Positions 3,584 through 62,516 of a stretch of 64,000 nucleotides of DNA are shown here, piece by piece; the first letter of the stretch is position 1; each line of letters begins with the position of its first letter. The stretch is from Schmidtea nova. Taxonomy: Eukaryota. The stretch is taken from assembly GCA_044892505.1 (NCBI GenBank), contig CM097882.1, positions 315,580,001 to 315,644,000 on the forward strand. The letters run 5' to 3'. The position numbers and the translations under genes are program-made. The notes under the pieces were generated by a model. It was given only the letters and a program-made list of their open reading frames with translations. It did no database searches and was not told the DNA's origin.

Positions 3584-3732
3584 AAATATTATTTGAATTA
3601 ATTATACATAATTCTTTGATAACATTTTTATGACAGGAAATATTAATAAAGTAACAAATTTTTACAATACATTTATTTAATTATAACGTTTACACATTAA
3701 CCACGCAAGACAATGTTGACCACAAGTAATAG

Positions 3733-4005
3733 TTAATGGATGTTGAAATGGAACTTTATTATATTCAATAGGGGCACCAATTGATGATAGTTTTTGACTA
3801 AAAGTGATGGATAATAGTATCCCAATGTATAGAAAACAAATATATTGTCACTTTTTACATAGACTGCAATCAAATGTTCTCCATCGAGAGTAGATGATTG
3901 TGTATTGACAACTATGGCTTGATTTATATCCAAATATGGAATTTTATCAATTGGGTACACTCCAACAAATTCATTTCCCAATATTTGAGCACCTATTCGT
4001 ATTAT
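3733..4005 (-). pseudogene. Adenain-like cysteine protease (Polinton PRO), truncated/frameshifted
   Basis: FVGVYPIDKIP..IVVNTQSSTLDGEHLIAVYV matches the GVYPxD..IVNTD..GEHW motif. Confidence 0.85.
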
Positions 4006-4153
4006 CTGTAAGGAAATAAATCAATAAATTTTTATAAAAATCAAATACTTACTCCATGACATTTTTAAAACCTAATTCACTGCATTTATACTAATAATGA
4101 ATCATTCAAGTATTCTTTGAACAAAGTTCAAATCAGTATTCTTTTAACAAAGT

Positions 4154-5354
4154 TCAAATCAGTATAGTTCTATTTGCAGTAATTTGTACTTCATTTTCAA
4201 ATACTCCGTATATTATAACATGTACCGGTTCAGTAATAGCTTTTTCAAACTTAATATCTAAACGCAAATTTCCATTTTGAGGCAATTGACTCTGATTCAA
4301 ATCAAAATCAGGAGCGAGAACAAAAGTTAAGAACGGATATTTAGTTTTAAATCCATCGAGAGTTATATCGCAATTCATATTTTTATCCAAATATCCCATA
4401 TTTCTCACAATTGACTGCATATATGTAGCACAACAATTATTATTATCGAAATCCTGAGTAAATGTTTCTCTATAATCAGTATTTTTCGATAAAGTAAGAG
4501 ATGTAACACTAAAATGTTTGAAAATTGAGCTTGAAGCAGTATATGATCCATTGTATTGAGTTTCACTTTAAAAAGTGACGAGAATGAAGTTAGACATTCT
4601 TCTATCGCCACATATTTGTTCCTTATAGAATGATGAGGCACCTTTGGCAATTGCAAATTGTACTATTTCTTTCAATTTTAATGAGTATATTGCATGTTTA
4701 GAATTAAGTCCAATTTGATGACCTGCTATTCTTACCAATAGTTTCGCATCAATTAATTGACATTGGTGCTCCGGCAATACAATTTAGTGATAGAGCAGAA
4801 TCCGATCTTTTCAACCTAATGTGAACATTAATACCTGGAAGTAAATATTTCGGCTAATCCATAAAGTCTAGTTGTAATGATGAACACATTGTAAATGTTT
4901 TTGAACCTATTATCCATTTTTTCCTATCTTCATCACTACCATAACCCAAAGGCGTAAGACATGTATTTTTTGTATCGGAATTATAATTAAAAATAGTTTC
5001 TATTATTGCCTTGTGAGCATAAGTATTGTTTCCACCCTCAATCTTTATATTATTAAATCCAAGAATTGCATCTGTAAAAAGTGTATGAAACAGAAAGTTC
5101 TTTGGAGTTGTAGTATCAGCATCAGCATCAGCCAAAGCTTTTTTATCTTTATCTACAACCTTGATTTGAACAGTTAATAAGGTATCGTTCAAATCCAAAT
5201 ATTCCGTTTTAGAACCATTAATGGAAAACTCAACATAATTTCTACTATAAGTCAATGAATTCATAGGAAAACCCTCTTCGAATGCCCCAAATTCAATCAC
5301 CGCTTGTGGCGATGGTCGATCAAATATACATAATTCAGATTTTCCACAAATCAT
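4154..5354 (-). pseudogene. Polinton double jelly-roll major capsid protein, fragmented
   Basis: N-terminal CGKSELCIF..PQAVIE and C-terminal GNLRLDIKFEKAITEPVHVIIYGVFENEVQITANR motifs; several frameshifts. Confidence 0.88.
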
Positions 5355-5482
5355 TTTTTAAAGATAGTCCCATGTCCTTTCATTCGTTTGTTTATATGCC
5401 TTTTACGTTTAGGGGCTTCTTGATTAGTAGCCTGTTTTGGCTCTGGTTTGGGATGAAGTTTAATTATTTTCGGTATATTTAT

Positions 5483-6987
5483 TCATACCTTGAAAATTCC
5501 ATTTTGAGCATATATTGCTTTCGCTAATCCCAATGTTTTGACGATATTTCTGTCAAAAGTAATTTCATTAATATCTGGATTCAAACTGAATTTGAAGTAA
5601 GTATCATCCATCATTTCCAATGATTTAAAAATACTTCCACAATTTTGAATCAGATATGATTGCATTTCATCCAGTTTCGATATGACTAAGTTATCGTTAA
5701 ATGTATATATAAATGCAGTATCATCCTTATACTCTATCTTTATTATAATTTTTTCAAGTCTTTCTCCAACTTTGATATATTTAGGTAACGGCATCTTGTA
5801 TGTATCCGTAGGACTTACAATACTCTGTTTCGTTAATCCTAATCTTTTCGCCATTGCCAAAGTATCAAATGTTAAAGTGAAGGGATAATGATCACAGGTG
5901 AAATAAATAAAATTCTTATCGTTAGATATTTGAGCAATATCATCGACAGGATTAGATATATCAACTTCATCTAGCTGATTGTCAATTACCAAATTTTTAT
6001 ATTTTGAATGTAAAGTTTTCATTTTGTACTGAATTTCAGAATTACTATAAAATGGAAATGGATTATACATATTATTGTAATTATGTTGCAATAATTACGC
6101 TAATGTTACTTAAGGTAATGTAAAGATTACGATTTGGGTAATATTGAGTTGAGGATGAATGTGGGTTGTGAGATAGAGATTTGCAGAGCCCGAGAGAATC
6201 ACCGATTTATGTTGGGACAGTCGGGGTGTCTGTTGTGTGCTTGTGTGCGTGCGTATGTATATTTGTTCAACAAAAATAACCTTTAAAAAAATCAACTTTT
6301 ATTTAAGAAAGGATAACAGAACTATAAAAACTACTCACATGAATATTGCATAAATTGTACAACATATTTTCTTTAATTTGAACGTTTCTTTTGGATTTGT
6401 AATTTATTTTCTTTAGATATTCAATCTTATTAATCTTTTTTCTTTAGATATCCGATCTTATCAATTTTTTCCAATCTTATTACTGTACAATTATTATTAA
6501 TCTTCTTAATCTTTTAATCAATTTTCTTTGGTTATCTTTGTAATTCCAATTCTTCGCTTTATATTTAATTTCTATTTCTCAATCAATTCCCTATTTCTAA
6601 GGGTTATTGTATATCTTTATTAAAATTATTATTTTCTATATTCTGTTTTTTTAATTCTTATCCTCAATTAAAAAATAAATAAAATGCACAAAACAAATAT
6701 AAAATAGGGGTCGTCCCTTGTCAACAAGGACGCCCACGACTACAAAAGCGGTTGCAATAATCATAACATTAATGGGATAATAACAATGATAAAAATGACG
6801 ATAATAATCGTAATCATAATCAAAACAATCAAATTGTACAACATTAACAATACACAAATGTAAAGTCTAAGAGAGCGACTTCCAATCACAATTCAAGTAT
6901 ATTGGATTCTGAAAATCAACCATGAATTTACTGGCTTGATTGTTAGGATGAATAAGTGGACAACTATTACTCGGGAAAATTGTATAG
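5483..6987 (-). pseudogene. Polinton minor capsid (penton) split by a solo LTR
   Basis: The 5' part at ~6853-6987 (FYTIFPSNSCP..ASKFMV) and the 3' part at 5483-6068 are collinear with the uninterrupted homologue at 63610-64000. Confidence 0.8.
6076..6849 (-). mobile_element. Solo LTR (Gypsy-type) inserted in the penton gene
   Basis: TG...CA ends; ATAC at 6065-6068 and 6850-6853 is a candidate TSD, though the left end is not perfectly clean. Shares the CCCGAGAGA...TCGGGGTGT cassette with the 44-kb LTR. Confidence 0.7.
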
Positions 6988-7905
6988 AAATTTACTTTAC
7001 TAAATCTTTTGCTGATATCCATATTGGAGTTTAAAATCCATGCCACTTGACATAGTATTGTTTATCCTTACTTACCTTTTTGATTTTAAGATTGTTTGAA
7101 TTCTGAATACTTTAGGTGGAGGAATCACCTGTAATTCCTGCTCGTAAAATGTACCAGCTACTTCATTATTTTCATGATCTTTAATCACATACATGATAGG
7201 ATTTTGTTTTGTATTAATTTTTGATATTTTAAATACTTCATCACTCCAATTTGTGTCGAAATTTTTAATAAACGGTGATGCACTAATTTTAGATATACGC
7301 ACATGACCACTGACTTTATATTTAGGTTTCTTTAACTTTTTCTTGTTTTTTCGATAACCATAAATCAATTTCATTTTTAGATGAAATATCCACTGGTCTT
7401 AATCCATTTAAACCTCCATGTGATGAATGATTATAAATATGTATAATTTTCGGTAAAACATTTATCCAAGTTTTATTACATTGATGGACAAAATACTTTT
7501 TGAGTCTATCCCGCAGTGTTCGATTAAATCTCTCTACATGCGCTGCCTTGTATTGTGAATGCAGAATAATGATTTATTTTTAAGATAATCCATTATTTTC
7601 TTTACTTTACTGTTGTAAAATTCCTTACCTAAATATTGTCAAATAAATATTAATTATTGATAATACCTAAATTAGTTTTTAGATTGTTTGGATGTCCATC
7701 AACAAATAAAGTTTTTATAGCTTCAGCCATTTCATCAGCAGACTTTGTCTTAGTTGGAATAGCACGTGAGTAACGACTAAAAACATCTATACATGTTAAA
7801 ATATAATTGCATCCTTTGCTGATCTTTGAATATGGGATCATTTCCATTAAATCCATTTGCCATAAATCGTCAATTCCAAATGTTTTATATGCTCTTAGAG
7901 AAAAA
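6988..7905 (-). pseudogene. Polinton integrase with C-terminal chromodomain; contains 38-nt intron 7629-7666
   Basis: DLWQMDLMEM, YILTCIDVFSRY, KTNLG|KEFYN after splicing, AHVERFNRTLR and chromo-like KQYYVKWHG; N-terminus deleted. Confidence 0.88.
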
Positions 7906-8182
7906 TAGTCATTCTTTTCATGCTTGGTGCCCCAAGTAATGATGTGAAAAATGCATGAATTCGAGGAATAGTTTTTTTGTTAGATTTTTGTTTTGGTTTC
8001 ATTTTATGAAAAATTAAATTTTTGTTGGAAATATTCGTTACAAGTTTTTTCGATGACGTATAACTGGTTTTTGGTATTTGTCTTTCTATTTTCTTTTTGA
8101 GTATTTTTCGAATTTTTTCGAATTTTGGTTGTTTAAAATTTTTAGAAATCTTTTTATGTTTTACACAAGTCTTAAAATACAT
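7895..8182 (-). pseudogene. Basic Polinton core-like protein (homologue of 61976-62513), 3'-truncated
   Basis: KTSYTSSKKL and IHAFFTSLLGAPS align with the copy 2 ORF. Confidence 0.6.
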
Positions 8183-8194
8183 TATTGATTTGAT

Positions 8195-8830
8195 TTATAT
8201 TTTACTTTGTTTATAAACCATTGCCCCTTCCTTATTGAATATATCAGTTCTAACTCGTAATTCATCACTGCATTGTTGTGTGAAATCGAGAAAAATATAT
8301 CCATGAGGGCCTCTGGATTCATCCTGAAACGCGCTGATCAAGAAATTGGGATTATTCGGATACGCCTGTCTTGCAAGAAAATCAACAACTGTAGCATCTC
8401 TAGGATTCTTGAAAACAACCAAATAATGTACATTCAAATTGACGTGTTCGATATGCACCGCCTTGGTGAAACAGGTTTTGTGTGATAAAAATAAAAATAA
8501 CACTGACATGTCTAGTAGACATTGTCTACTGATTTGTGTGAATAAATTATTGAAATTCTTTTCTTTATTTGCTTCTTGATACAAACCATCAATAACAATT
8601 ACATCTCCCCTCTTTAATCGATTTGACCAATTTTTATCAAATTCCTTTACTATCTTCATATTTTTTTATTTACAAAAATTATCTTCAGTCAGTCGGCGTT
8701 CTTCATCAGCACCTCGATGCCAATAAATATTGTTAAATTTAGATTTAAAAAATTTGATTTTAGTAATTTGCAAACAACCACTAGGGCCTACAATTTGATA
8801 TACAGCATCATTTCTTAATTCCATTTTCAA
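8195..8830 (-). pseudogene. A32/FtsK-like DNA packaging ATPase
   Basis: Walker B VIVIDGL, NLFTQISR, NLNVHYLVVFKNPRD and HGYIFLDFTQ; Walker A broken (QIVGPSG then deletion). Confidence 0.9.
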
Positions 8831-8924
8831 ATTTAAATAATATTGCTATTGTTTATATTAATCAATTAAATGGACTTCATTAAAATATGTATGTATATAG
8901 TTGGGTTTGATAAGTAATTGTTAA

Positions 8925-9363
8925 ATGTTGTCAAATATAAATTATATAGGTAAATTAGATGTTTCCAAAAAGATTTTTCCCAAATGGAAAGCCACAACAA
9001 ATAGTTGATAGAATTGAAAAATATACGTTTATATTTTTCAAGTCCGGCAAATGTAGGATAATGGGTTGCAAGAACCCAATTATTAGAAATGACTTGGAAT
9101 ATAATATCAATGATATTCAAATTCAATCAATTACAGTAACAATTAACATCTGTTTTAATATTAACTTATACAAACTGGCAAAAAAAACTAATTGTATGTT
9201 TGAACCAGAACTTTTCCCAGCTTTAAGGCTTTTACAACATAATCCGATGTGTGTCAACATATTTTCTAGCGGTAAAGTTGTTGTGTTAGGACTTAAAAAT
9301 CTAGAGTACCAATCATTTATTAACAATCTTGTTATTGAAAAAACTGGATTGGTCGAACGCTGA
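8925..9363 (+). CDS. Element-encoded TATA-binding-protein-like protein (one 5' frameshift)
   Basis: IFFKSGKCRIMG, IQSITVT, FEPELFPAL and VNIFSSGKVVVLG match the two TBP core repeats. Confidence 0.85.
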
Positions 9364-9423
9364 TTGGCCCAAATTTATATAAATATGTATATTGAAAGTT
9401 ATTTTATCATTATATTTTTAAAA

Positions 9424-9789
9424 ATGAAACTGCTCGACATTAATGGTATATTTATTATTATACTTATTTCTTTATTATTATCATCATTTTTAGAATTGTC
9501 TTTGGAGATAGTAATGAATAAAATGGACGAACTATTCCCGCAACTCAAAATTGAAATGACCTACACCGCTCCGTAGCTATTGGCCTATAAACTCATAGGC
9601 CATACAGGAATCCATATTTTTCAAATCATTAAAGATCATTGGATCAATCCAGATGAAGAGATACCAAATGTGGCAAAGCCATATCAATTTCCATACAAAT
9701 GCGGAGCTTGCGGAGAAAGAATGAGTAAATATTTCATTTGGGTTCTGAGAAACGAGCTCCAAACCTACGATTTTTCAATATATAAATAA
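9424..9789 (+). pseudogene. Conserved Polinton orphan gene with YxCGxC motif (one premature TAG)
   Basis: Homologous to 60003-60497; the TAG at 9574-9576 aligns with Glu in copy 2. Possible 48-nt in-frame intron near the 5' end. Confidence 0.7.
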
Positions 9790-9880
9790 ATGTTTTCATT
9801 ATGTTTTTCTTTAATAGATGACTTTTAAATAATAATTAAAAAAGAAAGAAAACACACTAAATAATCTATAATAATACACT

Positions 9881-10030
9881 TGCATGATTAACACAGTCAC
9901 ATGCACTAATAGTGCATGATTAACACAGTCACATGCACTAATAATGCATGATAAACAAAAACACATGCACTAGTAGTGCGTGATAAACAAAAACACATGC
10001 ACTAATAGTGCATGATTAATTAAGACATAC
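9881..10030. repeat. About 32-bp tandem repeat (TGCATGAT(T/A)AAC...CATGCACTA)
   Basis: Four to five adjacent copies visible. Confidence 0.85.
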
Positions 10031-10039
10031 AATAATAAT

Positions 10040-10801
10040 CATGCATTAATAATGAATGACACGTGATTCATTATTATTATTACTATCTACAATCAGTATT
10101 TGTGGCCCTGAAAAGGACCGTTGGTGCGTTATCATTGATTGAATTTGTTGAATTGATTGTAGGGCAAACATTAGTTTTGATATAATGACAATCAGAATTT
10201 CGGTATATATGCTTAAAATAATAATAATAAATAAAATGACAAAATATAATAAAATGGCAAAAAAAACACTTATATTTCTGATACATATTTTGGTTATATA
10301 CAATCAATATTTGTGGCCCTGAAGAGGACCATTGGCGTGTTATCATTGACTGAATTTGTTGAATTTATTATAGGGCAATCATTAGTTTCTGATATAATGA
10401 CAATTAGAATTTCGGCCGATATGCTTAAAATAATAGTAATAATAATAATAATCATAATTATCTTTTTTCACCTTTGATCTTTTTTTATTATTAATATCAA
10501 TAATTCCCATAATGAATGACTAGATCAAAATTTCTTTAAATAAGTACACGATATTTCGACACAGCCTTTATCAAGTGTGTGTAAATACATTTTTTGATAC
10601 ATTATATTTTGGTCATATACAATCAAATTTGTGGCCCTGAAGAGGACGGTTAGCGTGTTATGATTGATTGAATTTGTTGAATTGATTGTAGGGCAATCAT
10701 TAGTTTTTGATATAATGACAATCAGAATTTTGGCAGATATGCTTAAAATTATATTAATAATAGTAATAATAATATTAATAGTAATATTAATAGTAATATT
10801 A

Positions 10802-10855
<54 letters not shown>

Positions 10856-10950
10856 ATGACAAAAAAAAACAAATTTATATTTCTGATAAATTATATTTTG
10901 GTCATATACAATCAATATTTGTGGCCCTGAAGAGGACCGTTTATGCTTTC
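10040..10950. repeat. Four dispersed-tandem copies of a ~130-bp unit separated by AT/(AAT)n spacers
   Basis: TTTGTGGCCCTGAA(G/A)AGGACC at ~10099, 10312, 10628 and 10919, each with conserved downstream sequence. Confidence 0.85.
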
Positions 10951-11173
10951 TCATTTTTTTCTTTTTTAGTTTGTTTGAATTGATTGTTAGGCAATCTTTT
11001 TTCGATCATATACTGTTAGCTGGACAACCATCAGTTAGCTTTGCAGTCATCTATTAGCTGGGTAATCACATTTTAGTATCTTTAAAAAATAATAATAATA
11101 AGTAAATTTACCCAAATAAATATTTTATCTGTATGTGCAGAATCGGACATATTGTTAGATCAACTGGAAATCT

Positions 11174-11175
<2 letters not shown>

Positions 11176-11245
<70 letters not shown>

Positions 11246-11267
11246 TATTAATAATAATAATAATATT
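11176..11267. repeat. (AAT)n microsatellite
   Basis: Direct observation. Confidence 0.95.
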
Positions 11268-11271
11268 AACT

Positions 11272-11675
11272 CTATAATTGATCGTTATAAGCGAATTCTG
11301 GAATAATATAATTTGATTCCTCATGATTCAGAAAAATATTATTCGATTCCTCATCTAAAAAATTAAAATGCCCATAAGTCAAGCTCTTATTCTCTCCAAC
11401 CCAAACCCTTTTATTGTCATTATTTGTTAAAGCTACCTTTTCTGTTCTAAATGTGAACAATTGATGGTTTCGTGATTGTTTAACTTTCGCTATATTTATT
11501 CCGTGATAACAATCTACATATGATTGATGCGTAATTGGTGTTCCTTCCAATGTGACACCCTTTGCTTTATTTACTGCATCATCATCCTCTCCCAAAAGAC
11601 TATAACATTTTAGTCTGAAGAATATCCATTCTTTATAAGCCTTCCCTTTTGCTCTTGTCCTTTAAACAATTTACA
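11272..11675 (-). pseudogene. Protein-primed family B DNA polymerase, C-terminal fragment
   Basis: KEWIFFRLKCYSL, KAKGV and KVALTNNDNKR motifs; truncated 5' by the LTR at 11677. Confidence 0.88.
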
Positions 11676-11676
11676 A

Positions 11677-12529
11677 TGAAGGTTTATCAATCAAATATTT
11701 GTGTAAACAAGAACAATCAAGATTATGGATTGAATTAATCCTTGCTGTTTGTGACAGCCTGCAAGAAATCGTTGGCTCCTGTGTAGCATTACGATCACTA
11801 AGAATTTAAACAAAGATGGGCAAGCAAGAGGGTATGATTTTGAGGCACTCAGAGGATACTAAAGTAAGCTTCTTTACTTTAAACCCGCTTGTTATTTTTT
11901 TAAAAAAAATATTAAGCCGAAAAGGATAAATTTATCCTTCACTAATTTTCAAAAACTAATAATAATTTCGCAAAAACTATAACAACTAATAATTTACCGT
12001 TTCTCTTTCGAAATCTGCAAATATCAATCTTCCCACAGAAAATGTGATCGAAGTATTTATATTAATCTCCCTGTCCTCAACTCAATGCAATACTACTAGA
12101 AATAATTGAATTTTTCTTCTGACTGACGAATTTTCAGCTTCAGCGATAATATAAAATTGCAAAATACGCTTCTCTATGAATTTGATTTTCCTTTCTCCAC
12201 TGTTTATTTAAACAAAGTTTATCGCTTGATTGGTTTTTTTTGTAACCTTAATTTCTTCCTCTTATTATCGTCCTTCTCAACTGTCCTTTTTATATGTAAA
12301 TTAAATTAACTGAACTATATTTAGTAACAAGAAATTACTATTTTCCTAATTTATTAATAATTACCAAAGATAACTCAATTCTATTTTTGGTAATTGTTTT
12401 TTCAAGATAACTTATTTTTAGTAAATCTTTATTTTAATTAACTATTTTGAGTAATTTAATATTACTATATTTAAATATTACTTATTTTAAGAACCTAAAC
12501 ACATTAAGGCCAAGGGCCTGACCCTAACA
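11677..12529 (-). mobile_element. 3' LTR of the accessory-rich Gypsy element
   Basis: On the minus strand the purine tract TAGGGGGTAAGAC precedes TGTTAGGG (12529). Ends ...CCTTCA (11677) exactly where PolB resumes. Confidence 0.7.
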
Positions 12530-12815
12530 AGTCTTACCCCCTAAAAGATTTTCGTCTCGAAAACAAGATTAAACAACCAGGCTTTACACAAACAGCATTA
12601 ACATAAAACATAAAAATTTAAAATATACACCATAGCGTAAAAAGAACTTATCAAAAATCAAATGTCACTTTATATTTATACATCACATGAATAAAATAAA
12701 TTTCAAAAGGTCTATTAAAAGTCAAGATCAGGGTCATATGAATCACAAAAAAAATCAAGTCTTCTGTATTTACAATATTTGCTTTGCGACGTTGTTGATA
12801 GGCAACTTGCATTGA

Positions 12816-13300
12816 TTAGGCATCCAGGTCATCGAGATCTGGCTCGGGAATCTTGTACAGATGTACTTCTGTTGTGCTATAACCATTAGCGATTGCATAT
12901 TGCTTTTTCAATACTTGCTTTCTCTTCTTCAGGGTATCTAACTCAAAGCTTACTGCCATTGCTTTGTTATCTAACGCGCTTGTTAATATAAGCGATGATA
13001 CTACATACGGTATTCCGTCCACGTCATAAACATCTTTTTTCATTGTTGTTTATAGCCATTCTTGTAACCGGTTGGCAGTCGTAATCTTTGGCTCTAGGTT
13101 TCCATAGAGGATCGGGGCGTTTATACCACATTGGTTCAAATCCATCTAAACCTACGATTTTCAACATCTTTTTCCGAACTTCGGGTTCAGACTTAACCCT
13201 TATTGCCTCTTGTAATTCCTTAATTGGCGGTTGAAACTCGACTTCCATTATATCATCATCGACTTCGGCAAAAACTTTCTTAGTAGTAATCTTTTACTTT
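12816..13300 (-). CDS. Hypothetical accessory ORF(s), overlapping frames
   Basis: ORFs 13024-13248 and 12816-13043 have protein-like composition; possibly one frameshifted or spliced gene. Confidence 0.4.
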
Positions 13301-13910
13301 AAAAATATCATGAAGGGATCATACATGAATCACAATGTAGAAAATAGTTTCCTCAGCTTATCCTTCAATATTTTGAATTTTCCAAAACAAGAATTATTTT
13401 CATTTTTATGTCAACAAATCTTGATAATTATTTCAATGGTTTTAGTTGTATTTTATATTTTAAGTCTGATTAAAATAAAATTTATGACAAAAATTCTCAT
13501 TATTTAAATTATAATATTATATGCATTACAGTCGCATTTTGATACAAGCTCATCTCAATAAATAATTTAGAAAAAAATTTGTATACTTTCGGTTTCTTAT
13601 TTTGAATTCGTTTTTATAGAAATAATAAAATAAATTTTAAATAAATAAATATTTATTAAATTCTATTTTAGTTAATAGTCTATATAATTATTTTAATTAA
13701 TTAAAATAATTGAGAGTGTATTAAATTTTTAATAAATAATTTTTGAAATCTTCTGTTAAAATTTATAAAATAATTGTAATAATTTTTTGGTTGTTTAACA
13801 ACCTTCTTCAGCTTCATCTTGGATTTATCTCTTTTTACCGGTATTATCTTCTTAAGAATTCTTACAACCTTGCCTGTTTCCTGTTTGTTTTTACCGGGCA
13901 TAATACCTGA

Positions 13911-14681
13911 TTATTTCTTTTGCTGATAGGCAGCGCTAGTAGATGGTTGTTGTTGTTCGGCTTCGCTGACGCATGTTTCGTATTCATCTTCTTCACCTAT
14001 CGATATGATTGAGGGTAGTTGGAGATCTTCTGGTGTCTTCTTCCTTCTTTTTGCATGGTGTTGCTCCGATGTAGATGGTGATTCGGGTAACTTCCACTTC
14101 TGTTCAACAATCTCTGCCGTAGTTGTTGACCTAAATTCCTCCTGAGGTACACTGATATGGTCTAACCATTCATTTCTGATGTGTAAATATATAGCACGAA
14201 TTGCTAATGCCTCATTTGTAACCACAAAATTCCTTGGTTCTCCCGGCACTGTACGCAAAAATGTCTTCGCCAGGAATCCCAATCTATAATAGCCGTGAAT
14301 CTTAGGGACTCCCCGGGATTCTAACAATTTATTCGTGGATAAATCACGGATGCCTAATAATCTCTGCACTGGTAGATTGGCTACCTTGAATAAATCCTTT
14401 ACTAGAATGCCTACCACTATTTTCTTGTCACAGATTTTCCGTATCAAATGGTGACAATCCTCCTCGTCGAAGTTTCCTCGGATTTTCTGTTCGTTCAACT
14501 TATATTGGTGCGTCTGGTAGTGTTTAACTGGATCTTTGGGGGTCACTACTGCACTCAATAAATTATTCCCTCTTATATCCAAGATCGCTATCTGGATAAG
14601 CGTTTTCTTCATATCAATTCTCGATTTTGCAAATCCGGCCGACACAAAAACTGTGGCCTCATCTTCTTCCACTTTCGACAT
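13911..14681 (-). CDS. REX4/ISG20-like DEDDh exonuclease-fold protein lacking catalytic residues
   Basis: Collinear with the REX4 pattern (IAILD.RG..L, VTP..PV..YQT, KKIVVG, IRDLS, EALAIRAIY..W), but ExoI DxE reads SAG. Confidence 0.72.
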   Translation of the reverse strand: MSKVEEDEATVFVSAGFAKSRIDMKKTLIQIAILDIRGNNLLSAVVTPKDPVKHYQTHQYKLNEQKIRGNFDEEDCHHLIRKICDKKIVVGILVKDLFKVANLPVQRLLGIRDLSTNKLLESRGVPKIHGYYRLGFLAKTFLRTVPGEPRNFVVTNEALAIRAIYLHIRNEWLDHISVPQEEFRSTTTAEIVEQKWKLPESPSTSEQHHAKRRKKTPEDLQLPSIISIGEEDEYETCVSEAEQQQPSTSAAYQQKK

Positions 14682-14696
14682 ATTTCTCCTTACAAA

Positions 14697-15290
14697 TCAT
14701 CTGCTTTGTTGGAAATCCTCTTCATTAACATTATAAATCCATGTAGGCTCATTTCTACTCACAATCGGGTAAGGTTTCTTGTAATCTAAGATTTCTACAG
14801 CAATAATGGTATTAACTGCGGATGCCTGTAACATGATGTTACGTTCTCTACCATCAGCATGATACACCTCCAATGTGCAATGTTTATCCAATTCCACTGG
14901 TAGTTCCATCCCAGCCATAAACACTGTAATCGGTCTATTTATAGCATGGAGCCATATATTTCCTAACTTTGGGCATGAGCCATATTCTCTGCATATGTCC
15001 GCTACTTTTATTCTACCTTGGTTGTTCACAACTGTCACCATCATTTGCCTTCGAGGCCCTCCTGGAAATTTATAATCATTTGGGATATCCACCCTTCTCG
15101 GGTAGTACCAATAATTTGAAGTGAGGTGATTCATCTTCGCCGCCACCGTGGTTCCTATGAACCTGTAAACATACACCTCTTTGTATGTGCTATACACTTC
15201 TATATTACTTCTATTTTGGGAATTGTACGTTATCATAAGGTGTTGTTTGTTTGATTTTGTCGGGACTCTTAATTCTTCTGTAGAATTCAT
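14697..15290 (-). CDS. Hypothetical 197-aa accessory protein
   Basis: Intact ATG ORF whose stop lies 16 nt before the exonuclease ATG. Confidence 0.65.
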   Translation of the reverse strand: MNSTEELRVPTKSNKQHLMITYNSQNRSNIEVYSTYKEVYVYRFIGTTVAAKMNHLTSNYWYYPRRVDIPNDYKFPGGPRRQMMVTVVNNQGRIKVADICREYGSCPKLGNIWLHAINRPITVFMAGMELPVELDKHCTLEVYHADGRERNIMLQASAVNTIIAVEILDYKKPYPIVSRNEPTWIYNVNEEDFQQSR

Positions 15291-15452
15291 GGTTTTCTAA
15301 AAAGTAAAAATAATTAAAAGATTTTATCACTTTCATGATAGACCCTCCCAGGGTAAACCAAGTCGACATACACTGATGTCTGATTTTACAGTTGCTCTTT
15401 TGAGCCCACATTATTATCTACATAATTATAAATACTAATATCAAATAAATAA

Positions 15453-16511
15453 TTATATATTTACACTACCTATTCTCTGGTGAGATTTTCCCCTATACTT
15501 AGTCTCGTAGTAGTTTTCCCAATATCGTTTGTCCCTTAAAGTTAATCTAAACATCCAAAGGGTTGCTATTACTAATGCTAAAACCATACTGGTTACTCCC
15601 CCTATTATAACTACAAATAGCCAATTTGGCATTTTATCTTGTAACATCCCCCTAAGTTCTCTTTGACAGGTACAATTTGTTTTAAGTTTATTTACACGGG
15701 GTTGTATTTTACTCACTACCTTTCTTAGATCAATCAAAGCTATTTGAGTTATTCCTTCGCACCCAGGAATTTTTACTAAACTGGCCCTCCCTCGTTTGAT
15801 AGTTAGTTTTTCCATAGCAGGTGGTACCAGATCTAATAATTCATGATGTACTGTGTACCAACCAATTTTCTCTGAAAACTCCAAATATGTTATATTGGCT
15901 TTCGTTACCACTTTTGGTCGTATTGTCCATTTTCGATCTTGATATGATTGGTTGAGTACCAATATAAATATATGAGCGCGATTCTATTATTTTTCATCCA
16001 ATACTCATGCGCGAATTTTACCGTCTGCCCATGATAAGAAATCTCTACTTTTTCCGTAAATACTGCTGTTTTCAAAATCCATCCCGCTTTGTCATCACAA
16101 TTTCACCCGTCTGCAAAAATGTATGGATCCTCAAAAAAAGGTCTTGATTTCCAAGAGATATCCGGTGTTTGGCATTAGTCCTGCGATTACTTTCACTCGA
16201 TCCCATTTGTTTAAATGGAAAGATATACCTTTCTCAGGTGTTATCAGATATAAATCGTATCGGTGCCACTCTATTCTCTTTAAATAGAACCTGAATGCCA
16301 TATCAGTTCGTTGATATCATATATCTGGATGTTGACTCGACTCTGGTACAAACTTCTCGAATGCTTGACCTACCATCATGACGCAGCTGATTACTGTTAA
16401 AAATGTAATAGTTTTAGGAATCTGTCTAGATCGTAACGAGTATCGTTCTGGTTGACCCTTTAGGATACTTTTATATGATTCCAAAGTTTTCTTTTTCGAT
16501 TTCTTATTCAT
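15453..16511 (-). pseudogene. Type I membrane protein with FN3-like segment, frameshifted
   Basis: Hydrophobic signal-like stretch TITFLTVISCVMMVG; manual translation gives VKVIAGLMPNTGYLLEIKT (FN3-like); C-terminal TM WLFVVIIGGVTSMVLALVIATLW and a Tyr-containing tail. Confidence 0.55.
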
Positions 16512-16568
16512 TTCGAATTCGTCTGTTTCTGATTTTGGCTTCTCTTTTTCCGATGGAGCTATCTTTTT

Positions 16569-17660
16569 TCATCTATTTGCGTGAAGCACGATTGGCTCTG
16601 CTTTCTTGTTTGCTACTGACTGTAAGATCAAATTTGTCTCTGTGGCCTTCAATATTTGATATGGCCCTTTATAATTCCTCATAAGTTTCGGGGGCAAACC
16701 TTTTTTGTTATAATGTCCTTCTAACATGACATAATCTCCCACTAAGAATCCATGTTCTTTCGCTTTGCGATCGTGGTATTCTTTCATTGTTTCCTGATTA
16801 TAACGGATTTTTAAACCTGCTTTTTCCCAAGCTTCCTGCATTCTTTCTCTCATTTCAAATAAGTAATTCCCTTCTTCACAATTTTGCGAAGCTTTCGGAT
16901 AAAATATGAGATCTACTGGCATCTTGCTATGCCTTAGGTACATTAGATAAAAAGATATTTCTCCTGTGACTGAATGAACCGCATTCCTATATTCAAACAA
17001 ACATGACGGTTCACATATGAGCTCACATATGATGACAACATATTTGCCAAGGTTCCATTGAACCTCTCCACCAACCCATTCGTTTGTGGGTGGTATGGTG
17101 ATGTGTTTAACTTTAATATACCAAAATAATCATTTATGCTTTTCAGCAAATTGCTCATAAAATCCTTCCCTCTGTCGGTAAGTAATTTTGATGGAACCTC
17201 ATACCTAAATACAATCTTCTCGACAAATATTCTGGCAATTGTGTCTGTCTTATGGTTCGGAATAGAATATGCTTCTGGCCACTTTGTTAAGTATTCGTAG
17301 AAGACTAGTATAAACTTGTTTCCCATCGTTGATTCCTTAAACGGCCCAAGTACATCCATAGCCGTCATCTCCATAGGTGAGGATGGTACTGGCATTGGCT
17401 TTAGGGGTACATGAGGTTTCTTACCTGTATTCCGCCTTGTTACACATACTTTGAACGTTTGACACCACTTTACATCATCTTTCATATCTGGCCAAAAGTA
17501 TTTTGTTTTTAATCTGGACAATGTATGTCTTGCTGAGAGATGTCCTCCCAATGCTCCATCGTGGTATTTTAATAATAACGACTCTCTATACTTCTTTGGC
17601 ACTAATATCACATTGTCTCTCGTTTCCACATATTTAATTAAACCTTCTTCCAAGATAAAT
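16569..17660 (-). pseudogene. Gypsy integrase (zinc-binding, DDE core, GPY/F), one frameshift
   Basis: HDGALGGH, YFWP, AMDVLGP, LLTDRGKDF, PYHPQTNGLVERFN, YKGPY. Confidence 0.95.
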
Positions 17661-17666
17661 TTATCT

Positions 17667-18077
17667 TTATATTTCATCGATCGATCGGAAAGCATTTATG
17701 CAATCCTCTGGTGGGATTATCAATGGTACCGGGATAAGCTTAGCTCCCAGAAACGCTGTATAGCTGTTTGTCCCACAGTAATACTCAAATGTCGCTCTCT
17801 GTATTCGACATTCCCTCACCATGGTCCTATTAAACTCTGTTTGTTGATAAACATGGTATTCTAAATCATCCCGTTTTGCAACTTTATCTGGATATGCTTC
17901 CTTGCATTCCACTGTGTCTACTAATGAATAAATTTGTGCTAGTATCGGTTCACTACAATCATATGCTGTTAAGGAATTTGCCTGTCGCAATATTCCCATC
18001 ATTACTAATAACATCATCATCCAATTAGCGAATCCCCCCGTTCCCCGTGGATTATTTGGAATATTTTCTGTCAACAA
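17667..18077 (-). pseudogene. Env-like class III (gB/chuvirus-type) glycoprotein N-terminus, truncated
   Basis: Signal peptide then LTAYDCS..YSLVDTVEC..C.I....YYCG.NS, the AYDC pattern of chuvirus-like glycoproteins in invertebrate LTR elements. Confidence 0.7.
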
Positions 18078-18119
18078 TTTCTCGTTTATCTCATATTTTC
18101 CTTTTGATTCATTTGTCTC

Positions 18120-20531
18120 CTAAAACTTGTGTTCAGTCATCCATGTTTCAAAATTCACTTCTATGATATCGGTCAGCCTGTCTAAGGCTCCTTGAATTCC
18201 TGACGAATCGTCCTTAAGTATTATTAAGGTGTTTTTAAACATTAGGGCTAAAATCGTTATCATTTTCCCTTTTGTCAACCCTTCTTGCATAAATTGTCCT
18301 GCTACTTCAAACAGTTCTTGTTCCGTGGTGCCTCCCGGAATTTTTTTCATTGCCTTTTTAATCTTGTCTGTAATTTTCTCAACATTGTTAACTTTGTCTT
18401 TCTTGATTTGCCACTCGGGCTTTATCAGTCGTAATATTTGGTTCAATCTCCTCCACGTTTCCGTTTTACCACTAAAATCTCTTGCCCCTTTATCAATTGG
18501 GCTTACTATCCCTGCCAAGGCCTGCCTGTTTACGCTTTGTCTCGTAACTGGCCTTAGGAGTTCTCTTGGAGGCGGGTTCATTTGACTCTTTCTTGGTCTC
18601 CCCCTTCTCTCCTTTCTCCTATTTTCAACAAATCTCGGGCTCATCCTATCCCTTGATGGCCCAATTCCCTGCGAAGTACTAGCTCCGATGTTCGTTTCAT
18701 TTCGGTTTAATCTTATACTTTCATCTTCCATAGGTGGGATTATCTCGACCAACTCATCCTCGGAGTTGTCAAATTCTCGTAAATATCGGTCTATTTCAGC
18801 ATTTAAATCTACAGTTTCCCCTGTCTGTTGGCGGGTATCAGCACCTGCCTGTTGTTGCTCGGGAGGGATCTCATCCTTCTCCAACTCAGCATCATCTGGC
18901 AATCTCAGCGTTGACCATTGGTCCTCTGGAAGTTCGACCAATAATATCAGTACAATAGTTTCCTCTCGCGGAAAACATCCTACATCTACCAAATATTCGT
19001 CGTAATCAACCTGACAACCATGTATCATTATTATGAATGACTCTTACTATTGTTGATACTCGTTTCCTCAGTTTCTTTACTTTATGGAAACACGAAAATT
19101 GTTGTATCATGTGTCCTTTCCTGGGTATCCTGATATCCAACATTACTGGACCTTGTCTATTATCCTGGTGTCTAGTAGCATGCCCATTTTTAATTACTAG
19201 CGTCTTTGCTTGCGTTTGAAATGGTGATGTCCCTTTCAATAAGGGTACCACCAATGGCATTACCTCTCTCAGAGTATCTACTGGGATTCGTAACTCCAGT
19301 ATCCAATCCATTATCATCTTAATGGCTTCCCCGTCTCTCGGGTTTTGCATCAGCTCTATCCCCAACCTTTGTGGTATCGCTGATATTTGATTTAATTGCT
19401 CGATTTCCATTTCAGTTATTGTTAGGACATTGTCTGAGTCCACTACTGTAACAGTTTCCTTGTGAAACTTTGCTTTTACTAGCATTTGTTTTCCTGGTAT
19501 TATACCACAATCTAACAGGGTTTCTCTCTCCAATAATTTCTCTCCCAACAAATATAGTTCGCATTTCAGTCGAGGTTTTACCTCAGCGACTTTCTTGACT
19601 AATGCTTCGACTTTTTCACTTGGGTTTATTGTATATCTATAAAAAAACCTTTAGGTAGGACTACAAAAACTATGGAATCCTCTAGATTTCCTTTTTGCTT
19701 CCAACTTAATCCTACGTTTCGAAGGATTTCTCTCAATACCGGATGCTATTCGTCATTTCGGTTTAATTCCAATACTATGTCCATTACTTTATCAACCTCA
19801 TTCTCATTAATGGGGTTTAATCTGATATCTTCCAGCCTCTGTTCTACTTCTCTTTGCCATACGTTCCTGTGACGTAATAGCATTTTACAGTCATCGATGG
19901 GGTTACCTTCCTCTTTCGATGCTTCTCTAACTTTTATTGGTTTGCTACCACCATCATCTCTCTGGGATGATGTGGCTATTAAGACTTCCGGCTCACTGAC
20001 AGAAGCCCATCGTTTTTCCAAAACCTCTGTTGGATACTCACTGTTAACCACTGGATCTATGTCCATGGCTTTACGAGTTTTACTAGGTGAAACCGGTAAA
20101 CCTTCTTTTTCTCTGTTGGCCTCTGGCTCTATGACCATAGCCTCTCGATTTTTACTGGGTGAAACCGGTAAACCCTCATAACAACTTTTGACCTCTGATT
20201 CCCTGACCATGGCCTCTCCCTCTTTGTTCTCCTGTGGACTCTCTTGAAGCATCAATACGTCAAGTTCTGTTACAATATCATTATTCGTATTACGCTGTGC
20301 ACAACTATCTTTGTTTCGCCATCTTCTGGCTGACAACATGTAAATCTCGGCTTCATCTTCGCCATACTCATCAATTTCATTTGTCGTTAGCCTTGCTAAC
20401 CTATTTCTCTCTTGAATTTCCAATTCAAGCTGTTGTAAATAAGTTAATTTATGATCTGAATGCACTGCAAATGTAGTCTGTTTCGGTCGACTTTTACCAT
20501 TATTATTATTATTCCCGTTATTGTTATTCAT
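18120..20531 (-). pseudogene. Multidomain accessory ORF (~800 codons): low-complexity N-term, CARD-like, two ubiquitin-like, Bcl-2-like
   Basis: ORFs 19746-20531, 19006-19551 and 18120-19028 join through one stop (19746-19748) and two frameshifts (~19645, ~19030) that fall inside recognisable domains. Confidence 0.65.
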
Positions 20532-20546
20532 TAACTGATTTTGTGG

Positions 20547-20960
20547 TCACGAACGCATCATATGACCAAGTTTTCCACACGTATGACATTTAATTTTACC
20601 CCCCGAATTCACTTCGTCCCTCTTTATATTATTATTATTTGCAAAATTATCACTCTTATTCTGAAAATTTTTATTATTATTACTCTGAAAATTTCTATCG
20701 GGGCTTCTTTTTCTTTTATTATTATTGTTAAAATTATTACTTGAGTTATTCCCCCCAAATCTAGTTTTACAAACTGACGCTACATGTCCCTTGCGTTTAC
20801 ATTTCTCACAACTCAAGTCCGAAAATCTGCAGTTTGCCGCCACATTATTGTTTCTCCCGCATTTGGTACATGATTTCCCCTGTGGAATTATTTCTACTCT
20901 TTTTTATGACAATTAAAACACTCAATATCGGACTTATCTATAATACTAATTCGCGACTGT
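20547..20960 (-). pseudogene. Multi-CCHC zinc-knuckle (gag nucleocapsid-like) segment
   Basis: CEKCKRKGHVASVC, CHTCGKLGHMMRS, CTKCGRNNNVAANC and a truncated ECFNCHKK. Confidence 0.8.
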
Positions 20961-21599
20961 CTCTGTCTGTCTGTCGCATGTGACTTATTGTTCTATGTTA
21001 TTTAACGTTGTTAATATTGAATTATTCATTCATGTAAGTATGTATATAATAAAATGTATTTATATCATATAGATAGATGCTATTAAGATTTTAATAATGA
21101 TAAATATCCTAAAGTATTACATATAATAAAAATAATAAAAATAATAAAATTATTTAAATAAAATTTGAATTATTAAATTCAAATAGCTTACTATAGGAAA
21201 CTATAGTAAGCTAAAAATAATCAATAAACAGATTGATTATCAAATGGGAAAAAATTAAACAAATAAACTAGGAGAGATTTAAAAAAACCGAGAATTGGAT
21301 AACGGAGATTATATCATACTGAGATTTTGAAATTCTCAATATTCCAAGAGAATTTTAAACTAGAAATTAGTCCTTGGATCTTTGGGAACATACCTACTAC
21401 TGTTACTCAGATTTTAGAAACTTAAAATTGAAATACCTAAAAAATAAAGAATCCCCAACCTCTATTTCCCAACTCTATTCCTCAAATCAAAAAAATTAAT
21501 TTAGTTGATCTATCAGGAAAAAATACTCCAAACCTGAAAACGAACAGAAACGTATTCAAATCCACCTGATCACTCCGAAACTCTATAATCCCCCTAAAG

Positions 21600-21827
21600 T
21601 AACTTTTGTAAAATTGCATATTTGACATTGGTGATAATAGTTGTGTTTAGCGTTAATAATTAATTTATTTCATTATTGGTTGTCTTATTTTATTGTATAC
21701 ACTCTAGCACTACAAAGCATACACCCCGAGTGTCGGTACACAGTTAACGCCAGACTCTCTCGGGCTCTTACATTCTTCTAGAGTCACAAAACAGAATATA
21801 ACCTTAAACACACATACGTAACATAAA
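21600..21827 (+). mobile_element. 3' part of an LTR of the 6/23/44-kb family, opposite orientation, running into a gap
   Basis: GCATACACCCCGAGTGTC...GACTCTCTCGGG is the reverse complement of the cassette in the other LTRs. Confidence 0.65.
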
Positions 21828-21988
21828 NNNNNNNNNNNNNNNNNNNNNNNNNNNNNNNNNNNNNNNNNNNNNNNNNNNNNNNNNNNNNNNNNNNNNNNNN
21901 NNNNNNNNNNNNNNNNNNNNNNNNNNNNNNNNNNNNNNNNNNNNNNNNNNNNNNNNNNNNNNNNNNNNNNNNNNNNNNNNNNNNNNNN
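21828..21988. other. Assembly gap (N run)
   Basis: Direct observation. Confidence 1.
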
Positions 21989-22427
21989 TTTGTGTGTAAC
22001 GCTGTTTTCGCTAACTCATAACCTTTTCATTTCTTAAGATAAAAAGCCCAAACAAAAAGTGTTTTAAAGATCTTTTCAAAAGCTTTTCAATGGTGTGAAG
22101 TACGTATTATCTCATTCCCAATTATAATGAATGTTTTCTACATGACAGTGTTTTTAGAAATATTTTTATTATACAGCTGAAATATATTTATTTCGAAAAA
22201 TTCCGTCTTTTTTGACGGGTAACACACTAGTTAGTGCTAATTGCGAAATTATTTGACTTTTCTATGCTACTCTCAATTAAACAAGCTTTACGAGTTAATT
22301 TATTTCATTCATATTGTGGAACTCCATTTTAATAATTCTGACAATTATTTAAATCAGATTCGATTTCGATTTCTTCACTAGGCTGCCATTCATCAACTAT
22401 TTGAAAATCATCCCATTCACCAGTTTG

Positions 22428-24023: not shown

Positions 24024-25575
24024 TTATAAAAAGTCAGTAATTTTAGTTTGCCTTCCATTAAACAATTCTTTATCCATAAAGTTCTCTAAAGTTGATAACG
24101 CGCGATACACTTCGTCTGTAAGATTCGTTTTTGAACACAAATATTCACTACACTTACTTAAAAAATAACGCATTTCTTTGTTTGTAGGTGGAATCGGCGC
24201 TGTAAAGGCATTTTGGATGCTAGAAAAGACATTGTCATTGTCATTGTCATCTTCATCTTCCTCTTCGTGATTTTTAATCATGTTTAAAATATCGGAATCT
24301 GTTGGATAGTCCGTTATAACCATGTCTTCATCTACAGACAAAAAATCACCAAGAGACACTGTATTGCCGACATTTTGTTGATTATAAATGTCAAACACGG
24401 ATCTCAATTCTGACAGAGGCATATCATCTTCACTACAATTGCTTTCGCCGTGTTTTTTGAAGCCAGCCTTTGTGAAATAATTTTTTATTGTTGCTTGCTG
24501 TACATCGGTGTTCCACGCTTTCGACAAGTTTGTAATAGCATCCCATAAAGTAATATTTCCCGTCTGATTGTCTTCTTCTAAGGCAATTAAAGTTTTTTCT
24601 CAGAATTCTTGTTCTATAGTGCAATTTCATATTGTTGATAATTCCTTGGTTCATAGGTTGTAATTTTGGCGTCATTTTTGGTGGGAGAAAAACTACAAGA
24701 ATCGAATTAAGCTGCTTCGTAATTTTTGGATGTGACGGACAGTTATCCACAAACAGCAATATTTTACGTTTTTCGGCATTAAATTTCTTGTCTAAACTAG
24801 AAAGCCATTCTTCATAAACTGCGCTTGTCATCCAAGCCTTTTTGTTACTTCTGTATATCACTTGTAAAAAACGTTTTCCTTTGAAGCAACGCGTATTTTG
24901 GGATTTTCCAATTACCAACAGTTTTAGTTTTCGGTACCACACATATTGGCTCCCACCATGACGGTGATTCTTTCTTTGCTGTGCTTTCTGCCGAAGCACT
25001 TTTCGTCTTTAAAGGTTAACGTTTTATCACGCAAACATTTAAAAAATAAGCCCGACTCATCCGCGTTAAAAATGTCTTTTTCATGATAAGATGCTATAAT
25101 TTCCGGTAAAATATTGTTGCGCCACTCTTCACAATTATGTTCATTGACATCTGCACTTTCACCACACAGAACCTATTGAATAATATTATGCCTCTTCTTA
25201 AACTTATCTAACCAACCTACACTGGCGACGAAATTGGTGTGTCCCAGACTCTCAGCAAAATAAAGTGCCTTTTCCCTAATAAATAGGCCAGACATTGGTA
25301 AATTCTTTTCCCGAGCAATTTTAAACCATTCCAAAGTAACTTTTTCAATGTCTTCGTAGGTACAGTTTTTAAAACGTTTGCGATCAGTAGTAACACCATT
25401 TTCGGCCTTCTTCATAATTTCTTCGCGGTTTTTTATAATTGAAGAAAGTGTATTTGGAGTAATCCCAAAGTCTTTAGCAATCACTTTTCTTTTTAATACC
25501 TTTATCAACTTCACTTATCAACCTCACTTTGTCAGATAACGACATCGTATTTAGTTTTGTTTTCTGGCCACTCAT
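24024..25575 (-). pseudogene. Tigger/pogo (CENP-B-like) transposase, frameshifted
   Basis: HTH (AKDFGITPNTLSSIIKN), ASVGWLDKFKKRH, IFNADESG, YRSNKKAWMT, LLFVDNCPSH, LQPMNQG. Confidence 0.92.
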
Positions 25576-61235: not shown

Positions 61236-61341
61236 TACTGAAAATATTTTTAAATGAAACAAATACAATGACAACTAGTATTTATAACAAATATAAACAA
61301 TAATACTAATTTAATATAATTTTTAAATATGGAATTAAGAA

Positions 61342-61955: not shown

Positions 61956-61975
61956 ATTGATTTACAGTACTAATA

Positions 61976-62513: not shown

Positions 62514-62516
62514 ACA

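Follow-up and report, generated by a model that had tools for sequence, protein, structure and literature searches.

An errantivirus family of Schmidtea nova with ubiquitin-like domains, a Bcl-2-like domain and a second membrane protein in its polyprotein

What is the retroelement that lies in fragments near one end of a 64,000-nucleotide stretch of the Schmidtea nova genome, and what does it use its additional genes for? This stretch (the window; GenBank assembly GCA_044892505.1, contig CM097882.1, positions 315,580,001 to 315,644,000 of the forward strand) had been described in an earlier note, made from the sequence alone, as holding a Gypsy-type element with a series of separate open reading frames (ORFs) for the modulation of its host. 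Comparison with sister copies revealed a single decayed copy of a 15.2-kb long terminal repeat (LTR) element and excludes nested debris. The element is a Ty3/gypsy errantivirus of the GAG-ENV-POL, gB type. Judged from its sequence, its extra domains are probably directed at the host, where they would keep the producing cell alive and direct the transfer of particles to neighbouring cells.

As the earlier note had proposed, full-length copies could be recovered from the same genome. Those of this family, here family A, measure 15.2–15.5 kb and have LTRs of ~1 kb with TG..CA ends, 97.5–100% identical within a copy, and 4-bp target duplications. The primer site is the exact complement of the 3′ end of the host tRNA-Trp(CCA) genes. 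Intact copies contain only two ORFs, ORF1 of ~3,526 and ORF2 of ~689 amino acids. ORF1 consists of Gag, two units of one helical and one ubiquitin-like (Ubl) domain each, a Bcl-2-like domain, a signal sequence, a gB-type envelope protein (Env), a transmembrane (TM) helix, protease (PR), reverse transcriptase (RT), RNase H (RH) and integrase (IN), a second signal, a probable pair of FN3 domains, another TM helix and a tail of the PDZ-binding type. In this order, Pfam recognises zinc knuckles, Monjiviricetes_fusion (1.9e-79), protease, RT, RNase H and integrase, and the catalytic motifs of PR and RT are present. The intact copies thus show paired LTRs, target duplication, tRNA site, polypurine tract (PPT), the PR-RT-RH-IN order and the Env placement of errantiviruses; of the LTR-class features, the window copy keeps the PPT and a cut 3′ LTR alone.

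The family is abundant. A search of the genome with the 3′ part of the element returned at least 43 matches, the window included, of which 38 were near full query length, at 84–100% identity; 40 of 137 candidates were scored, so that these counts are a lower bound. Among the best 150 of 359 candidates found with the Bcl-2-like segment, 94 belonged to family A, 33 of them in an open frame of at least 3,500 codons, and 55 to a sister family, B. We fetched 18 natural stretches of family A and later four further loci. All 11 modules were found in 11 of the 18 (ten flagged as collinear, the eleventh spanning two tandem copies), and the other seven were deleted or interrupted copies. The four further copies all have a complete ORF1 and a more diverged ORF2. 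The family has been mobile recently, and the window copy is dead and internally deleted.

These counts bear on the condition that would have refuted the earlier note, an origin of the ORFs from several nested insertions or from misassembly, as the fragmented window copy with its two foreign inserts and adjoining Polinton fragment might suggest. However, all ORF1 modules stand in single open frames of 33 copies, they are found together in 11 of 18 stretches, and independent proteins in the ENA have the same layout. Because the modules are conserved together across copies and families, under purifying selection, they belong to one element, and we regard a nested or misassembled origin as next to impossible.

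Head-to-tail arrays with shared LTRs were seen at L051-L053 and L056-L060, comprising two full copies 99.8% alike and four internally deleted 11-kb units. In the flanks of several family-A copies, many insertions lie within AAT/TTA microsatellites, which may reflect a target preference. From about 128.02 Mb of G000:C3 (L170-L173), tRNA-Trp(CCA) genes are repeated in tandem every ~282 bp in a very large array; the pattern has 1,984 genome matches, all on one strand, and this is the primer tRNA for most of these families.

The window copy runs on the minus strand throughout, from the zinc knuckles (20547–20938) to the 3′ LTR (from 12529), with its modules in the order that the earlier note had given. 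It lacks the 5′ LTR as well as ORF1 residues 1–188 and 1327–2782; the second gap comprises most of Env, PR, RT and RH and has its junction at 17682/17674. Stops and frameshifts break its ORFs. An initial scan of the window accordingly found short ORFs with a zinc knuckle, a Monjiviricetes-type fusion start and an integrase, the remaining ORFs having no Pfam match. The parts are as follows.

22230–22301, minus: Gag fragment, ORF1 residues 189–212 (tblastn 92%, blastn 90%); earlier gag and 5′ LTR gone
20957–22229, no strand: secondary 1.27-kb insertion splitting gag, foreign to the element and partly N-masked; sister copies are contiguous here
20547–20938, minus: Gag nucleocapsid with CCHC zinc knuckles, broken by stops (Pfam zf-CCHC, 5e-06)
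19906–20546, minus: low-complexity linker under weak constraint, used as internal control (dN/dS 0.56 against an intact copy)
19690–19905, minus: helical domain 1, three predicted helices, the "death fold" of the earlier note (dN/dS 0.11; model)
19452–19688, minus: ubiquitin-like domain 1 (model pLDDT 76–91; VIA; profile matches)
19167–19437, minus: helical domain 2, a repeat of domain 1 with 4–5 predicted helices (model; middling HEAT-like matches, Z 8.4–8.6)
18923–19161, minus: ubiquitin-like domain 2 (VIA to the ISG15 C-domain; dN/dS 0.08)
18104–18509, minus: Bcl-2-like domain (family profile, sister family C, host Bcl-2 alignment; dN/dS 0.16)
17682–18020, minus: internal signal and first ~95 residues of the gB-type Env, remainder deleted (Pfam Monjiviricetes_fusion, 1.8e-12)
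16535–17674, minus: integrase (H2C2, rve, SH3-like C-terminus) with frameshift and stops (Pfam; comparison with intact copy)
15498–16412, minus: post-integrase type I membrane protein, broken, with TM at about 15540–15633 and a short tail (dN/dS, model, intact copies)
15291–15330, minus: putative splice-acceptor-like motif (TTAAT, pyrimidine tract, AG) directly before the ORF2 start (sequence)
14700–15290, minus: ORF2 N-terminal domain (dN/dS 0.04)
14140–14696, minus: ORF2 DEDDh nuclease-like domain without catalytic acidic residues (profile, alignment; dN/dS 0.05)
12819–14139, minus: remainder of ORF2, the "small ORFs" of the earlier note, with ~0.5 kb of foreign sequence at 13299–13786 (C-terminal part dN/dS 0.06)
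12530–12546, minus: polypurine tract, identical to the sequence before the 3′ LTR of intact copies
11661–12529, minus: 3′ LTR, ending ~200 nt short of its CA end (comparison with intact copies)
11272–11665, minus: C-terminal fragment of a Polinton-type polymerase (PolB), in the flank outside the element (81–91% to loci L148-L154)

The many separate ORFs reported earlier are thus an effect of decay, since this copy is deleted, frameshifted and carries two inserts. In intact copies the polyprotein ends with the membrane protein, and a single 689-residue ORF2 accounts for the orphan ORF, the pseudo-exonuclease and the small ORFs. The supposed insertion into the PolB of a Polinton fared no better. 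The cut 3′ LTR meets the last 130 codons of the PolB with an overlap of ~5 nt (the PolB frame at locus L154 matches Pfam DNA_pol_B_2 at 2e-18), and this boundary is a deletion junction. As the 3′ LTR is truncated there, no 5′ LTR is left and the 5′ flank does not match the sequence upstream of PolB in seven Polinton loci, insertion into PolB is unproven; an original insertion of the element into a Polinton is possible.

To what extent are the additional parts maintained? We calculated ratios of non-synonymous to synonymous substitution (dN/dS) by Nei-Gojobori counts, skipping stop and gap codons; all pairs were made with a single reference, so that they are not independent. Between the window copy and an intact copy, the helical and Ubl units gave 0.11, 0.13, 0.10 and 0.08, the Bcl-2-like domain 0.16, Env 0.09, the integrase 0.06, the ectodomain of the post-integrase protein 0.21 and its TM and tail 0.11. 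The N-terminal, nuclease and C-terminal parts of ORF2 gave 0.04, 0.05 and 0.06. Twelve other copies show the same pattern, with noisy values (up to 0.49) at small dS and no estimate where ORF2 is saturated; Env ranges from 0.02 to 0.11. The accessory domains, at 0.04–0.21 versus 0.56 for the linker, are under purifying selection, the outcome of a check that the earlier note had suggested.

The two ubiquitin-like domains are firmly supported by both sequence profiles and models. Their profile matches IQUB-Ubl (4e-05) and ISG15 (2e-04). The model of the first has a VIA Z of 9.4 and a root-mean-square deviation (rmsd) of 1.9 Å to the Rad23 UBL, and that of the second a Z of 11.7 and an rmsd of 1.8 Å over 74 residues aligned to the C-domain of ISG15. 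The β-grasp fold is reproduced with Z values of 11.7–11.9 and an rmsd below 2 Å over ~75 residues.

The helical domains that precede them are conserved and are also shared by three ENA relatives. Their repeat profile had no match among PDB sequences (best E 0.14), and no Pfam family was common to two of ten members. The earlier note had read the first as a death fold (CARD, DED, DD or PYD). This assignment is unsupported: there was no Pfam or PDB match, the models contain three and four to five helices, and hhalign to five host CARDs scored 0.4%. That profile comparison covered host CARDs, and the helical domains were modelled within a larger 613-residue segment. Because ubiquitin-like matches filled the hits of the 613-residue model, the fold searches barely probed the helical and Bcl-2-like parts. 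A TFIIS-N-like reading, prompted by inspection by eye, scored 2% (P 0.024) and was not accepted. The genome has tandem expansions of TFIIS-N/Med26-domain genes at G000:C1:216.19-216.25 Mb and C1:28.80-28.89 Mb, with ~25 near-identical copies at 1.2-kb spacing and an IWS1-like cluster. Within the lengths searched, a protein database search with the accessory region found no relatives.

The Bcl-2-like domain is confirmed at the level of sequence profiles. The call is made for the clade, to which family A is linked by alignment. The profile of the clade matches Bcl-xL with an E of 4e-06, and families C, D and E match Pfam Bcl-2 at values from 2.7e-07 (C, above the cut-off) to 4.5e-03, D and E being the weaker. 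Aligned with host Bcl-2 genes, the domain retains the BH2-like tryptophans. The signal sequence of Env starts 25–35 residues after the end of this domain.

Four hydrophobic segments lie at the expected positions of ORF1. Env, bounded by its signal and a TM helix (residues 1769–1805), lies between gag and pol, and its profile matches confirm a gB-type, Monjiviricetes fusion protein. A dUTPase-like segment between PR and RT, such as Burro has, had no match in the general Pfam scan, and no dedicated search was made.

Behind the integrase, intact copies continue into a second signal, an ectodomain, a TM helix and a short tail, which form the C-terminus of ORF1. On the basis of its model, the ectodomain probably comprises two FN3-like domains. 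The model is poor (pLDDT 46) and has two sandwiches; the top Foldseek matches are FN3 pairs (E 7.5e-05), VIA gives a Z of 6.9 with an rmsd of 2.3 Å over 67 aligned residues, and FN3 families of the Atlas score 0.80–0.84, leads below the 0.9 level. The ectodomain has no Pfam match, its profile found neither a PDB sequence nor an ENA relative, and ectodomain alignments across families are unreliable. Of 35 post-integrase frames, 32 have [ST]-x-[VLI] as their last three residues, against a tripeptide background of 2.5%; the three exceptions are broken copies, the window copy among them. This class I C-terminal motif is of the kind that binds PDZ domains. All four lineages have it (ETEV, MTRL, STLV, ETFV) on tails that are otherwise unrelated. 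As the copies are related, the count is to be read as four lineages and not as 32 events.

ORF2 encodes a middle domain whose profile matches ISG20L2 (4e-12), ISG20 (1e-09) and SDN1; family D ORF2 matches Pfam RNase_T at 6e-07. In the alignment, the catalytic residues (D-x-E, D, H, D) are kept in families D, E, F and G, absent in A and B and mostly lost in C. As far as sequence can tell, ORF2 therefore holds an ISG20/REXO4-type DEDDh domain that would be catalytically dead in family A and intact in sister families. For its N- and C-terminal parts, neither Pfam nor the protein database search yielded a relative, within the lengths searched. A putative acceptor-like motif precedes the ORF2 start in families A, B, D, E and F. 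Contigs from three sequencing runs of unrecorded kind contain no joint at the predicted acceptor, which is uninformative about expression. In four young family-A copies (L104, L107 and two others), ORF1 is near-identical to the reference, and ORF2, at just 66% identity, has saturated synonymous sites; the change from one allele to the other lies near the end of ORF1. This pattern indicates that ORF2 alleles have been exchanged by recombination between subfamilies.

Family A does not stand alone. At least four deep lineages (A, B, C and D–G) in this genome share the layout, with an RT-RH identity of 44–74%. Trees of RT and Env branch congruently (14 rows, midpoint root, no outgroup, and a long-branch warning for Env). 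Family C (L126-L133) has one helical and Ubl unit, a shorter ectodomain and a primer site that differs from that of family A; it has an AT-hook-like RGRPRK motif in common with A and B. A protein search with Env retrieved four ENA relatives at 36–45% Env identity. Three have the helical and Ubl domains, two the Bcl-2-like domain, and both full-length ones the post-integrase signal and TM helix; one of these two ends in TTLV. In two of the four, P0003 and P0004, the polyprotein contains two to four domains that resemble aspartic proteases; in P0004 one of these follows the integrase.

Could the copies be proviruses of a virus that is fully infectious and spreads from animal to animal? An intact Env at a dN/dS of 0.02–0.11, many young copies, a second surface protein and an ORF2 recombined between subfamilies would all fit such a virus. 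However, the lineages have close counterparts, as judged by eye, among the errantiviruses of Schmidtea mediterranea, as long vertical descent predicts, and the RT and Env trees agree. Selection on Env is equally expected from transfer between cells and the germline. We consider an infectious virus improbable.

Much of this design has been published for planarian elements. Chary and Hayashi (eLife 2026, PMC13524379) catalogued six GAG-ENV-POL gB-type errantiviruses of 14.5–18 kb in Schmidtea mediterranea. One of them, Smed_errantivirus_4, is likewise Gag-Env-Pol with a gB-type Env, multicopy and ~15 kb long (14.9 kb listed). Over its first 100 residues, the Env row of this element agrees with the family-A Env at ~71 positions, counted by eye, and by this comparison of sequences it appears to be a close relative. 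Families A/B, C and D resemble, again by eye, Smed_errantivirus_4, 3 and 1, respectively (PMC13524379). The main text of that article contains no occurrence of Bcl, ubiquitin, Burro, accessory, fibronectin or exonuclease. No primer tRNA is listed in its table for the elements of Schmidtea; for the present element it is tRNA-Trp.

The second precedent is Burro/GYPSM1 (Arkhipova and Yushenova 2019, PMC6431247). As the earlier note had suspected, the two are alike: Burro has been described with Ubi/SUMO-like and BCL2-like domains and, in frame between gag and pol, an Env of mononegavirus-like type, and interference with apoptosis and host tinkering were proposed for it there. Both elements encode a single huge polyprotein in which Gag, several zinc knuckles, Ubl, Bcl-2-like domain and Env precede PR-RT-RH-IN. 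Burro exceeds 30 kb with an ORF1 of 4,873–5,140 residues; the present element has half that size (15.2–15.5 kb, ORF1 3,526 residues). The MATH/TRAF, BIR and ankyrin domains of Burro have no Pfam match at E ≤ 1 in the present ORF1 or ORF2, and the two helical and Ubl units set our element apart from Burro as described. Section 7 of the Burro account does not mention a post-integrase membrane protein or an exonuclease ORF (PMC6431247). The element is therefore built like a compact Burro, compared by description, without the size and the MATH/BIR/ankyrin features.

MATH/TRAF, BIR and ankyrin models do match another LTR family of the same genome. It includes a separate 23-kb element on the minus strand of G000:C1:54612001-54652000 (L142-L145), with 3.1-kb LTRs that are 99.8% identical, Gag-PR-ankyrin, RING-TRAF-MATH and BIR ORFs, several orphans and no RT, Env or integrase frame. 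The 399-residue BIR ORF was found again in the majority of 150 scored matches, and the element looks like an abundant non-autonomous Burro-like family.

An extra exonuclease also has a precedent. The Vesta and Juno LTR elements of bdelloid rotifers have a DEDDy exonuclease as an additional 3′ ORF3 (Rodriguez et al. 2017, PMC5408684); according to the part of the article available, theirs is RNase D-like with intact catalytic residues, some ORF3s are small and contain TM segments, and there is no env. In the present elements, by contrast, the domain appears to be of the ISG20/REXO4-type DEDDh class, stands beside Env and looks active in some lineages and dead in others. A search of the open-access literature, Repbase and Dfam not included, found no post-integrase membrane protein or ISG20-type ORF2 in print. 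The basic design has thus largely been published, and the membrane protein with its PDZ-type motif and the live/dead nuclease ORF2 are apparently undescribed, with the provision that the descriptions of Burro and SLF in Grohme et al. 2018 may already contain some of the domains.

How might these parts work together? In our model, the polyprotein would pass four times through the membrane of the endoplasmic reticulum. Cleavage by signal peptidase would release Env and the post-integrase protein, and the element's own protease would also process the polyprotein. The first signal, that of Env, sits 25–35 residues past the BH2-like motif and could stay attached to the Bcl-2-like domain as its tail anchor. 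Pol would stay membrane-bound close to Env until it is cut off by the protease. The FN3-like surface protein may bind PDZ scaffolds by its tail and so place budding or adhesion at cell contacts. ORF2 would be made from a spliced RNA; the family A version might act as an RNA-binding protein, and sister families would have a working 3′–5′ exonuclease that trims RNA. Selection is likely to have kept the extra domains because they sustain the producer cell and direct particle transfer. Some envelope and accessory proteins of viruses end in PDZ-binding motifs ([ST]-x-V/L on a surface protein), and the Bcl-2-like immune modulators of poxviruses have a divergent Bcl-2 fold without NWGR. These belong to unrelated viruses, and the resemblance is one of design only.

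Several observations weigh against this model. Purifying selection indicates use to the element but not which use. Families A and B have no Pfam Bcl-2 match of their own, the Bcl-2-like model is of low confidence (pLDDT ~55), and the BH1 motif NWGR is replaced in all six element rows of the alignment and present or nearly so in most host rows. In family A the first signal is moderately hydrophobic, below hydropathy cut-offs, and was assigned by homology. The FN3 call comes from the pLDDT-46 model, and its Z of 6.9 lies within the range of common sandwiches. Among the ENA relatives, P0003 and P0004 have no Bcl-2 profile match and the full-length P0001 has no class I motif, so that the toolkit is variable.

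Alternatively, the extra domains could serve the element's own assembly and processing, as folding aids, cleavage or degradation signals, tethers, or in RNA trimming and binding, without modulating apoptosis or immunity; Env may then do no more than carry particles around within a cell or to its neighbours. The lost BH1 groove signature would be in line with this, as would a nuclease that is dead in three lineages yet conserved, the fusion of all modules except ORF2 to Gag-Pol in a fixed ratio, and helical domains without fold assignment. Against it stand the PDZ-type tail, which implies a host partner, and the repeated capture of apoptosis and ubiquitin parts, which includes the separate TRAF/BIR/ankyrin LTR family of the same genome and Burro (PMC6431247) and points to host-directed roles. 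We therefore hold purely self-serving domains to be possible but doubtful, and prefer the reading in which they act on the host. Of the parts named in the earlier note, the two Ubl domains, the Bcl-2-like domain, the gB-type Env, the integrase and the pseudo-exonuclease stand, the FN3 domains are probable and the death fold lacks support. With NWGR lost and the death fold unsupported, we can do no more than infer from sequence that they form an "anti-apoptosis and immune evasion" toolkit.

The remainder of the window is rich in other mobile elements. A decayed Polinton with the PolB end, a packaging ATPase, a chromodomain integrase and capsid-like ORFs occupies 3700–11665 (minus), and a second, inverted copy, 71–86% alike to the first, lies at the far end (61300–64000, plus). 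A broken transposase, pogo/Tigger-like as judged by eye, is found at 24024–25560 (minus), and long intact ORFs of 638 and 542 residues, transposase-like in look, at 26810–28726 (minus) and 30295–31923 (minus). Unrelated Gypsy pol fragments at 45094–47283 (minus) are 27–39% identical to the RT-RH-IN of the element, and an IS1595/ISXO2-like (Merlin-type) transposase fragment lies at 121–555 (minus; Pfam 1.3e-14).

For the biology of these elements, the accessory parts of an abundant, recently active, Env-bearing retroelement clade are now mapped, with evidence of selection, in a laboratory-model genus. A compact element of 15 kb makes it possible to examine one domain after another for the interference with apoptosis and ubiquitin systems that has been suggested for planarian elements (PMC6431247). 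The PDZ-tailed second surface protein and the pair of live and dead ISG20-like nucleases offer handles on the cell-to-cell movement of an element with a non-retroviral Env and on host RNA defence. Tentatively, and going further than we think likely, planarian errantiviruses might be the invertebrate analogues of complex retroviruses, made as a single polyprotein with four membrane passes, with a viral Bcl-2 that the Env signal anchors and that protects the producer cell, a second, PDZ-anchored FN3 surface protein behind the integrase that targets spread to cell junctions, and a spliced ISG20-like ORF2 that in some lineages would have turned into an RNA-binding anti-silencing decoy and been swapped between subfamilies under host pressure.

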